Assembly: GCF_009931435.1 (NCBI RefSeq)
Contig: NZ_CP043414.1
Origin: Escherichia coli
Lineage (GTDB): Bacteria; Pseudomonadota; Gammaproteobacteria; Enterobacterales; Enterobacteriaceae
DNA: 64,000 bases
Direction: 5' to 3' (one strand)
In this document: positions 547-3,832 of the stretch, piece after piece
Position numbering within the stretch: the first letter of the stretch is position 1
How the letters are laid out: each line of letters starts with the position of its first letter
The notes under the pieces: generated by a model
Databases searched by the model: none
What the model was told of the DNA's origin: nothing
The model's input: the letters and a program-made list of their open reading frames with translations, nothing else
Position numbers and translations under genes: made by a program

Positions 547-2262
547 TTACTTCAGCGGCGAACGGTTACGATCAATGCCGTAGCGTTCGATCTCTTTATA
601 CGGCACGGTTTTTGACTGGCGCTTGCGCACATCAACCAGCGTCACACGGTCGGTACAGGAGTAGCAGGGATCAAGGCTACCGATAATCAGCGGTGCGTCA
701 GAAACGGTATTGCCGCGCAGCATGTAACGCAGCACTGGCCAGTTGGCGTAGGTGGCGGCACGACAGCGCCAGCGGAACAATTTTTGGTTATCACCGAGCA
801 TGCTCCAGTGCACGTCTTCACCGCGTGGCGCTTCAACAAAGCCCAGCGCGAATGCGTGAGGTTTATAGCTAAAGCCTTCGGTCAGCAGCGGGGTATCCGG
901 CATGTTGTCGAGGGCAAATTCCAGCATTGCCAGCGAATCAAACGTCTCTTTGACACGGACCATCACGCGGGAGAAGACATCGCCGCCGGTAAAGGTAAAC
1001 AGCGTTTTTGGAATATTGCCGTAGTCGGCGTAGGGGTGATCAAAGCGCAAATCACGGGCAAAACCACTGCCACGGATCAGCGGCCCTACGGGGCTATAAT
1101 CACGGGCGATTTGTCGGTCGAGAATGCCAATGCCCTGAGTGCGTTGTTCCATATTCGGCGTGGCAAGCAGCATCTCTACCAGCTCCGACACGTCGGCGCG
1201 CATCTCGCGCACCAGTTTCATCGTTTGCAGACGTTGCTCTTTGAGAATATCGCGGCGAACACCACCAATCAGATTCAGACCGTAGGTTTTACGCGACCCG
1301 GTCAGCAATTCCGCCATCGTCATCGACTTTTCCCGCACGCGGAAAAATTGCATAAAACCGGTATCAAAACCAACAAAATGGCAGGAGAGGCCAAGGTTGA
1401 GCAAATGACTATGCAGCCGTTCGACTTCCAGCAGAATCGAGCGAATAGTATGCGCTCGTTGCGGCACCTCAATCCCCAGTGCATTTTCAACCGAGTTGGT
1501 ATAGGCCACACTGTGGGCAAAACCGCAAATCCCACACACGCGGTCCGACAAGAAGGTCACTTCGTTGTAGCCCATCCGCGTTTCTGCCAGTTTCTCCATG
1601 CCGCGATGGACATAAAACAGGCGGTAATCAGCATCGACAATTTGCTCGCCATCCACAAACAAGCGGAAGTGACCTGGTTCATCGGAGGTGATATGCAGCG
1701 GGCCAACAGGGATCACCCGCGCATCGCTGTTGCCCTCGTTGATAAACGGATACGTTTCGGTATCAGTCGTCGGTTCAGGGCGCAGTCGATAATCCATCGC
1801 GTCTTTGCGCAGCGGATGCATGTCTTCCGGCCAGTCATCGGGCAACACCAGGCGACGCTGATCCGGCAGGCCAACCGGAATCAGCCCGTACATATCGCGA
1901 ATTTCTCGCTCGCCCCAGACCGCGGCAGGGACGCGCGGTGTGACTGACGGAAACTCCCTACTGTCGGCATCGACCAGTGCCTTCACCACGATCCAGCATT
2001 TTTCGGCCCCTTCCATTGAAAGGGCATAATAAACCGCGTAATGACCGTTAAGTGTCCGCTCGTCGTTGCCAAACAGGACCGGAAGCCAGCCATCATGTTG
2101 ATAATAAAGATAATGTACAACGTCAGGCAGCAGATTTATTTTCACCGTAATGGTGACCTGTTCAGGCGTTTGTCGCTCTTCATCCAGCACCGCGCCGGGG
2201 AACTGCGTTTTCAGGGCGGCGAGAATCGCTTCGCCACGATTTGACGATGAATTAACGTTCAC
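547..2262 (-). CDS. hyfG: hydrogenase 4 large (NiFe catalytic) subunit HyfG
   Basis: ORF track 547..2307 translation is HycE/NuoD-like with C-terminal ...DPCYSCTDR; start placed at GTG 2260-2262, which has a GGAG Shine-Dalgarno 6-8 nt upstream and sits 7 nt past the hyfF stop; the upstream ATG at 2307 has no RBS. Confidence 0.85.
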
Positions 2263-3832
2263 TGTGTTTCTCCGAAACAGATGCGGTGCCTGAAGGCAAA
2301 AAATCATGCCAGGTGCTACGTTGTGCAGGCAGGTCGTGCGTCCCTGAGAGGACTATAGTGGAAGCGCCCGCCAGGATCCTGATGACAGGTTGTGGAATAT
2401 GCGTTCCCATCGCCAGCATCATGACCAGCAGAATCACCATTGGCGAGGTGGTCAACCAGCCAAGTTCACCCCGGTTAACGGCCTGCGGCGGTTTCGCCAT
2501 TAACACCCGCGCAGCCATCCGTACCAGGCCCGCCAGCACCAGCGTTAACAGCAATAACAGCAGGACGATAATCAACAGGTGATTACGAGCCAGTCCGGCG
2601 GTAACGGTCATAAATTCGCTAAGAAAAATGTTGAAGGGCGGCATCCCGGCCAGCGCCAGCGCACCGCCGCCAAACAGCACGGCGGTAAATGGCATGATTT
2701 TGAGCATTCCGCAGACGACGTTGAGATCGCGCGTGCCGTACTTGAGCAGTACATTGCCGGAACCGCAGAACAGCAGCGTTTTTGCCAGACTGTGGTTTAA
2801 GGTGTGCAGCAGCGCAGCAAAAATTCCCAGCGGCCCGCCAATGCCTAGCGCCACCGCGACCAGTCCCATGTTCTCCACGCTGGAGTACGCCAGCAGACGC
2901 TTAATGTCCCGCTGTACCAGAATGAAAAATGCCGCCACGGCAACCGACAACATGCCGAAGATGAGCAACAACCGGTTGGGGAAATCGCTGCCGATGGCCT
3001 GGCAAATAATGATGTAATAGCGAATCAGCACCAACAGCGCGCAGTTCAGCAATACGGCGGAGAGCAGGGCGCTGACCGGACTCGGCGCTTCACTGTGAGC
3101 ATCCGGCAGCCAGGCGTGCATGGGAAATAGCCCGGTTTTGGTGCCAAAGCCAATTAGCACAAACACAAAGGCCAACAGCATTAATGTTGGGTCAAGCAAG
3201 GACGATTGCTTAAGAACCTCGCTCCAGAATATCGCCATTTCTGCCTGCGGCATAACGCTGGCGGCGTTGGCGTATACCAGCACGGTACCGAACAGACCAA
3301 AAGCGACACCAACAGTACAAATAATGATGTACTTCCATGCAGCTTCCAGAGATGAACGCTGACCGTAAATGCCTACCAGAAACGCCGAGCTTAAGGTGGT
3401 GGCTTCGATTGCCGCCCACATCACAATCAGGTTATTGCTGGTAACAACCAGCAGCATGGTGAACAAAAACAGATGGAAGAAACCGTAGTAATCGCACAGC
3501 GTAACGGGTGAAATCTCGCCGTGAGCCACTTCATGACGCATGTAGCCAATCGAGTAAACACCGGTGAGAAAGCCAATCACACCAAGAATGGCGAGGAACA
3601 AACCGCCCAGACCATCAATATGAAGCCACAGTCCGGCGGCGAATATTTCTTCCGCATCCGCGGCGGTTTTGACCACCCAGAGTGCCAGAATCAGCAGCAG
3701 TGTGATCCCTAAGCTATGTAATACTGTCACCGTGCGAGTCGCAGAGTGTCCCCGTTTCCGGCAGGCAAAACAGAGCAGCGAAAAAAGCAGCGGCGTGAGC
3801 AGGAGTAAAGCGAACATCACAGAATAACTCAT
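2252..3832 (-). CDS. hyfF: hydrogenase 4 membrane subunit HyfF (NuoN/antiporter-like)
   Basis: 526-aa polytopic membrane protein in ORF track; operon position. Confidence 0.9.

Follow-up and report, generated by a model that had tools for sequence, protein, structure and literature searches.

The Escherichia coli hydrogenase 4 gene hyfG starts, on sequence and comparative evidence, at a GTG inside the end of hyfF

In the 64,000-nucleotide stretch of Escherichia coli DNA analysed here (the window), hyfG, which encodes the large catalytic subunit of hydrogenase 4, starts at the GTG at positions 2262-2260 of the minus strand, as judged from sequence features, comparative conservation and agreement with annotation and the literature. 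We are highly confident in the explanation as a whole, namely that the GTG start gives a 571-residue precursor, that coupling to hyfF is the most likely mode of initiation and that an in-frame ATG further upstream is accidental and not used to any meaningful extent. A GTG start of hyfG is already known and is the standard annotation. What is new here is the generality of hyfG initiation from a Shine-Dalgarno (SD) sequence and a GUG codon across FHL-2 loci, beyond E. coli and Pectobacterium, together with the origin of the ATG in hyfF His-Asp codons and an E. coli-specific 12-nt deletion after codon 2. The features of the hyfF/hyfG junction are the following.

547..2262, minus strand: hyfG coding sequence from the GTG, 571 aa plus stop, from the open reading frame and its translation
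2252..3832, minus strand: hyfF coding sequence, 526 aa, an antiporter-like membrane subunit; its 3' end bears the SD and start of hyfG
2254-2252, minus strand: hyfF stop codon TAA, 8 nt 3' of the first base of the GTG
2307..547, minus strand: longest open reading frame in the hyfG frame, 586 aa from the ATG at 2307-2305
2262-2260, minus strand: hyfG GTG start codon, in frame and 15 codons 3' of the ATG; a homologous GTG is present in 67 of 70 other hyfF-hyfG loci
2273-2270, minus strand: SD core GGAG of hyfG, within hyfF codons Ser-Glu (tcG GAG), with a 7-nt spacer (aaacaca) to the GTG
2252..2262, minus strand: overlap of hyfF with hyfG from the GTG start, 11 nt, GTGAACGTTAA; proposed translational-coupling site
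2305..2307, minus strand: in-frame upstream ATG, rejected as start, built from hyfF codons His-Asp (cAT Gat)

Counted from the ATG, the overlap with hyfF would be 56 nt (2307-2252+1). hyfF reads the ATG site as TGG CAT GAT (Trp-His-Asp), and the GTG sits within hyfF codons Ser-Glu (aGT Gaa). The window is chromosomal and collinear with E. coli NZ_CP169399.1 at 98.6% identity, and the 601 nt around the junction are 100% identical; PGAP places hyfG of that genome at the matching coordinates, in the context hyfABCDEFGH with hyfF directly upstream of hyfG.

The strength of each candidate SD was scored as the duplex of the 17 nt upstream of the start with the 3' end of 16S rRNA. The initial annotation had described the longest frame as running from the ATG at 2307 with a 56-nt overlap with hyfF and no SD, and this holds: the frame is 586 aa long and the best duplex, with the 22 nt upstream being cctgcacaacgtagcacctggc, is +0.5 kcal/mol, i.e., no SD at all. 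It had also placed a GGAG at the right spacing before the GTG at 2260-2262, which we likewise find, with a duplex of -6.6 kcal/mol across the 7-nt spacer. The other hyf starts of the window (hyfA, B, C, D, E, F and H) have duplexes of -5.1 to -9.7 kcal/mol. Of the 6176 ATG, GTG and TTG triplets in the window, counting both strands, 5.7% score -6.6 kcal/mol or better and 1.5% are preceded by a GGAG at -14 to -5. An SD of this kind before the hyfG GTG is thus improbable by chance, yet by itself not decisive, and it is the comparative data that settle the start. Predicted RNA accessibility does not discriminate between the candidates (mean unpaired probability of 0.45 for the GTG versus 0.52 for the ATG). 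No in-frame ATG, GTG or TTG occurs within 20 codons downstream of the GTG, which leaves the GTG as the sole start that retains the conserved N-terminal region.

At the protein level, the phmmer search against the PDB aligned residues 22 to 586 of the 586-aa frame with residues 4 to 581 of HycE (7z0s_E; E = 1.5e-292), so that homology with this subunit of solved structure opens at residue 7 of the GTG product. Since residue 22 of the long frame corresponds to HycE residue 4, the GTG product begins three residues before the position of the HycE initiator methionine, in line with the earlier claim that its N terminus matches the onset of HycE-type large subunits. The 15-residue extension from the ATG is matched neither by HycE nor by any database sequence found with a 236-residue N-terminal query; the best matches, mostly fragmentary proteins, cover at most 94 to 95% of this query and leave the first 15 residues uncovered. 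The remainder of the protein has a NuoC-like N-terminal domain and full-length homology to HycE-type large subunits, and Pfam PF00329 and PF00374 are the precomputed domains on HyfG homologues. The NCBIfam scan of the 586-aa frame gave no HyfG-specific model and only NuoC/D-type families below their cut-offs. NiFe-ligating CxxC motifs are found near the N terminus of the hydrogenase domain and at the C terminus (DPCYSCTDR), and both align with those of HycE. The window protein has a predicted C-terminal assembly peptide in an R|VTLV context, with 32 residues after the Arg, and such a cleavage context is typical of HyfG, compared to R|MTVV in HycE (Finney 2019, PMC7384014). By these features, the gene in the window is hyfG, encoding a group 4a [NiFe]-hydrogenase large subunit of the FHL-2 type.

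A scan with one genome per species gave 80 loci for HyfG/HycE relatives at 73 to 92% identity. Escherichia species other than E. coli are not among them, and the nearest outgroups used were Citrobacter and Klebsiella indica. HyfF orthologues (53 to 83% identity, tblastn) lie directly upstream of hyfG in about 70 of the 80, and the junction set (n = 71) is made up of the window and 70 other species. For each locus we chose, among the in-frame starts close to the onset of homology, the one with the strongest SD. By this definition, hyfG starts with GTG at 68 of the 71 junctions and with ATG at three, from two Pasteurellaceae and one Formivibrio MAG, with SD duplexes across the set of -6.4 to -10.5 kcal/mol. 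Such a GUG start with its SD in hyfF characterises the family without being diagnostic of it. Among the 60 distinct junction sequences, GGAGA at -11 to -7 is conserved at 82 to 92% per column and G-T-G-A at +1 to +4 at 95 to 100%, compared to 33 to 60% for the flanking columns, making GGAGA and GTG(A) the only strongly conserved block. The conserved arrangement is hence GGAGA-N6-GTG, embedded in a poorly conserved hyfF tail.

The position of the hyfF stop relative to this block is constrained but not fixed. In 64 of the 71 junctions it ranges from 3 nt ahead of the hyfG start to an overlap of 23 nt, the commonest layouts being TAAnGTG (26 loci) and GTGA (18 loci), and over the whole set the geometry ranges from a 43-nt gap to a 23-nt overlap with all three frame relationships present. 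Citrobacter sp. Awk 4 and Klebsiella indica have the identical hyfF stop in the same GTTAAT context as E. coli. In the DNA alignment, the E. coli sequence cGGAGAAAcacaGTGA falls under cGGAGAGTaaaaGTGA of Citrobacter, and the only difference there is that E. coli lacks 12 nt which Citrobacter and K. indica have just past GTGA (VN[YSDS]VN to VN-VN), as a result of which the N terminus of E. coli HyfG is four residues shorter than in its nearest relatives. On this alignment, the E. coli GTG is the homologue of the conserved hyfG GTG of its relatives. Comparison with HycE and HyfG orthologues, which the initial annotation had named as a way to check the start, therefore comes down in favour of the GTG, which is homologous in 67 of the 70 other loci, and identifies the ATG as specific to E. 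coli.

The ATG lacks any such history. An ATG at -15 codons is present in none of the 80 loci from other species; at its column, two Citrobacter have CGT, which gives GTG, and K. indica has CAA G, which gives AAG, while further out the sequences cannot be aligned. Any in-frame upstream ATG at all is found in a minority of loci only, each time at a different position from that of E. coli. The upstream frame is itself often short: of the 76 loci whose upstream open reading frame is long, 37 have fewer than 15 open codons before the start, among them K. indica and Citrobacter NCU1, where a stop interrupts the hyfG frame 11 codons ahead of the GTG. Within E. coli, 4194 of 4294 genomes match the 96-nt junction at 99% identity or more, so that the ATG is nearly invariant within the species. 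The single junction variant that we inspected was a C>A change at -3 of the GTG, and within-species variation gives no codon-level signal. The invariance of the ATG is explained by hyfF coding (His-Asp) together with low overall diversity, and the ATG is an accidental, E. coli-specific by-product of these hyfF codons.

Our literature search found no direct N-terminal, start-site or ribosome-profiling data on hyfG. The hyf operon is weakly expressed in laboratory E. coli, and published start-site profiling is therefore probably without coverage of the gene. In genome annotation, PGAP/RefSeq starts hyfG within hyfF, 11 nt short of its end, in each of the six genomes inspected (views of MFDS1022581, NBRC 3301, an O157:H7 strain, K-12 DH10B and OkiPb01695, plus a 32-kb view of MFDS1022581). 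The exact 571-aa product is encoded on 998 contigs. The exact 586-aa product corresponds only to the RefSeq protein WP_194314458.1, and the contig lookup gave no gene call on record that encodes it, so this entry is best regarded as an over-extended call. The earlier warning that automated pipelines may pick the ATG is thus correct to the extent of this one protein but does not describe PGAP, which used the GTG in every genome inspected. Finney et al. (2019, PMC7384014) give GUG as the first codon of E. coli hyfG; they state a GUG start for two species and raise a dosage role for both. The choice of the GTG over the ATG made in the initial annotation is in this way upheld by SD strength, junction conservation, the lack of conservation of the ATG, the HycE alignment, and annotation and literature together.

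Three other readings of the junction were weighed against a GTG start. The ATG could be the real and only start, giving a HyfG of 586 residues with a 15-residue N-terminal extension. It is a canonical start codon, the first in the longest open frame and nearly invariant in E. coli, and a RefSeq record has the long form; but it would be the only hyf start in the window without an SD, it is missing from all 80 loci of other species, in many of which stops close the frame, and it would produce an extension that matches nothing in HycE or the database and a product for which there is no gene call on record. We regard this reading as extremely unlikely. Dual initiation, mostly at the GTG with a minor E. 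coli-specific 586-aa isoform from the ATG, is also very unlikely. In its favour, the frame is open, the ATG is conserved within the species and is predicted to be no less accessible than the GTG, and bacteria do at times initiate internally in a leaderless-like or SD-independent way. The near invariance of the junction also means that population data have no power to rule out low-level use of the ATG. Against this, the ATG lacks an SD and sits 56 nt within an open reading frame that elongating ribosomes would be passing through, it is conserved nowhere outside E. coli, and nothing points to a function of the extension.

The last reading, a HyfF-HyfG fusion made by programmed frameshifting in the overlap with no independent initiation of hyfG, draws on the 11 nt that the two frames share in E. 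coli. It was rejected on the variable geometry of the junctions compared here, where gaps, overlaps and every frame relationship occur, and where conservation falls on an SD and a start codon rather than on a slippery site. Western blots have moreover shown His-tagged HyfG of Pectobacterium atrosepticum as the catalytic subunit (Finney 2019, PMC7384014), which also goes against a fusion, and we consider this reading almost certainly wrong.

Given a GTG start, translational coupling of hyfG to hyfF is likely, as we infer from the way the SD and start of hyfG are embedded in the 3' end of hyfF, the geometry expected of a coupled gene pair. The first base of the GTG is 8 nt ahead of the hyfF stop, so that a ribosome would, on terminating at the end of hyfF, sit over the hyfG initiation region. 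Such ribosomes could either keep the site single-stranded for a new 30S subunit or re-initiate at the SD and GTG themselves, and in both cases the synthesis of HyfG would be tied to that of HyfF. The weaker GUG codon would moderate the level of HyfG, pointing to a possible role in dosage.

The near universality of GUG at hyfG, both within the Enterobacterales and outside them, raises the possibility that the codon is selected rather than kept by inertia, so that synthesis of the catalytic subunit depends on, and stays below, completed synthesis of HyfF. If this were true, the subunit stoichiometry of the complex would be set by a weak start, a conserved SD and an abutting hyfF stop. In 35 junctions the hyfF stop lies 1 to 3 nt upstream of the hyfG start, which places the first base of the start outside hyfF, where a change from G to A costs hyfF nothing. 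Selection for a weak start would fit the persistence of GUG. Phylogenetic inertia within the Enterobacterales could lie behind it as well, and we put the idea of selection forward only tentatively, as somewhat doubtful.

The practical value of the start-codon result is modest and it opens no new question, but the correct N terminus is relevant to anyone tagging, expressing or modelling HyfG, and the case serves as an example of how a start-codon ambiguity can be resolved without experiments.

A separate observation concerns the interior of the gene. K-12-type hyfG (555 aa) has a 48-nt in-frame deletion that removes 16 residues between two ARD repeats, and the deleted segment, intact in the window at 1060-1107 on the minus strand, contains a conserved GPxxRxSG. 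The segment aligns with ARDFSNVGPMVRASGH of HycE and with ...VGPTARGSGI of Pyrococcus furiosus MbhL, and thus holds a motif that is conserved among the hydrogenases of group 4. Of 4294 complete E. coli genomes with hyf, 2179 match an 88-nt query that spans the segment, and about half of such genomes may carry the deletion. According to the available part of Finney et al. (2020), Hyd-4 activity was not obtained from K-12 even with strong promoters, and that part of the paper does not mention the 48-nt deletion; a literature search for a description of the K-12 hyfG deletion gave no paper mentioning hyfG. The deletion bears on why hydrogenase 4 of E. coli K-12 is inactive and is of more interest than the start codon.

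With respect to known systems, hyfG of E. coli K-12 (b2487) agrees with the window in its GTG, its SD and its 11-nt overlap with hyfF, and the 96-nt junction of K-12 DH10B is 100% identical; the two differ in that K-12 HyfG is reduced to 555 aa by the internal 16-residue deletion, whereas the window encodes the intact 571-aa form. The FHL-2 of P. atrosepticum is a functional enzyme (Finney et al. 2019, PMC7384014). Like the window, Pectobacterium hyfG has a GUG start, and in P. peruviense the SD caggaga lies within the last part of hyfF and the hyfF stop overlaps the start, by 14 nt compared to 11 nt in E. coli. The N-terminal 10 to 15 residues of HyfG are unrelated between Pectobacterium and E. 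coli and differ in length.

HycE of E. coli, the large subunit of hydrogenase 3 (FHL-1), can be aligned with HyfG over its full length and shares the NuoC-like domain and the NiFe motifs. The hyc-type loci in our set (n = 4) differ from hyfG, however, in having ATG starts and an intergenic gap of 17 to 73 nt instead of an overlap, with a shorter upstream gene (open frame of 321 to 376 codons) in place of hyfF. Classical translational coupling at overlapping or abutting stop and start codons is known from trpE-trpD and trpB-trpA of E. coli. As in hyfF-hyfG, the downstream SD of these pairs lies within the upstream coding sequence and the stop is a few nucleotides from the start. The differences are that coupling of hyfF and hyfG is read from sequence and that their 11-nt overlap exceeds the common ATGA and TAATG arrangements, so that a terminating ribosome would need to re-engage about 8 to 10 nt upstream.

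The hyfF/hyfG junction (window 2000-2600) is single-copy and chromosomal in the E. coli genomes that have it and is missing from 1132 of 5426 complete genomes, which presumably lack the whole hyf operon as well. Every gene from hyfA to hyfH has an annotated ATG start except hyfG. We observed that the longest open reading frame and the annotated start also differ for hyfA and hyfC, leaving a gap of the same kind as at hyfG:

9548-9587, minus strand: hyfA, frame opening at ATG 9587 and start assigned by PGAP (the RefSeq annotation pipeline) at 9548
6902-6923, minus strand: hyfC, frame opening at TTG 6923 and PGAP start at ATG 6902

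Just after the hyfG start, Citrobacter and Klebsiella indica carry four codons (12 nt; YSDS or YLDS) directly 3' of GTG-AAY that E. coli does not have:

2258-2259, minus strand: site of the 12-nt absence in E. coli by comparison with Citrobacter and Klebsiella indica

The hyfF stop is kept in its GTTAAT context in E. coli, and the hyfF/hyfG overlap is therefore 11 nt instead of 23 nt. The locus of Citrobacter sp. NCU1 (L006; 2470-2490) has one base more than the compared locus L004 in the spacer between the Shine-Dalgarno sequence and the start, gagtCaaaaGTG, and this shifts the hyfF frame so that hyfF ends at GTGA and not 23 nt into hyfG. Evidently the C-terminal tail of HyfF can vary freely, but the Shine-Dalgarno sequence and GTG embedded in it cannot.

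Two of the compared loci have questionable source labels. One (CACSKA010000005.1), titled Chryseobacterium sp. 18061, carries a hyfF-hyfG locus of the Enterobacteriaceae type, and the assembly is for this reason probably contaminated or mislabelled; its HyfG is 85% identical to that of E. coli. The other (QKDT01000362.1) is a metagenome-assembled genome titled Desulfovibrio desulfuricans, the binning of which is doubtful because its junction is nearly identical to that of a Proteobacteria metagenome-assembled genome (L070).

Across the whole window, just two Rfam matches reached the gathering score, both to nucleoid-associated noncoding RNA 4:

17691-17767, minus strand: naRNA4
42515-42596, plus strand: naRNA4

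The window carries an intact hyfG allele of 571 aa. Compared with it, the 555-aa HyfG of the K-12 type has an unchanged GTG start and lacks 16 internal residues, the loss being an in-frame deletion of 48 nt flanked by two ARD repeats:

1060-1107, minus strand: segment missing from K-12-type hyfG, by comparison with K-12 DH10B (L086, 2069-3736)

An 88-nt probe across the deletable segment matched 2179 of the 4294 hyf-positive complete E. coli genomes, suggesting that roughly half of them may carry the deletion. The deletion did not come up in the papers searched. Finney 2020 describes K-12 hydrogenase 4 as inactive even with strong promoters. The deletion could explain this inactivity, and it removes a motif of the GPxxRxSG type that is conserved in HycE, the large subunit of E. 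coli hydrogenase 3, and in MbhL of P. furiosus.
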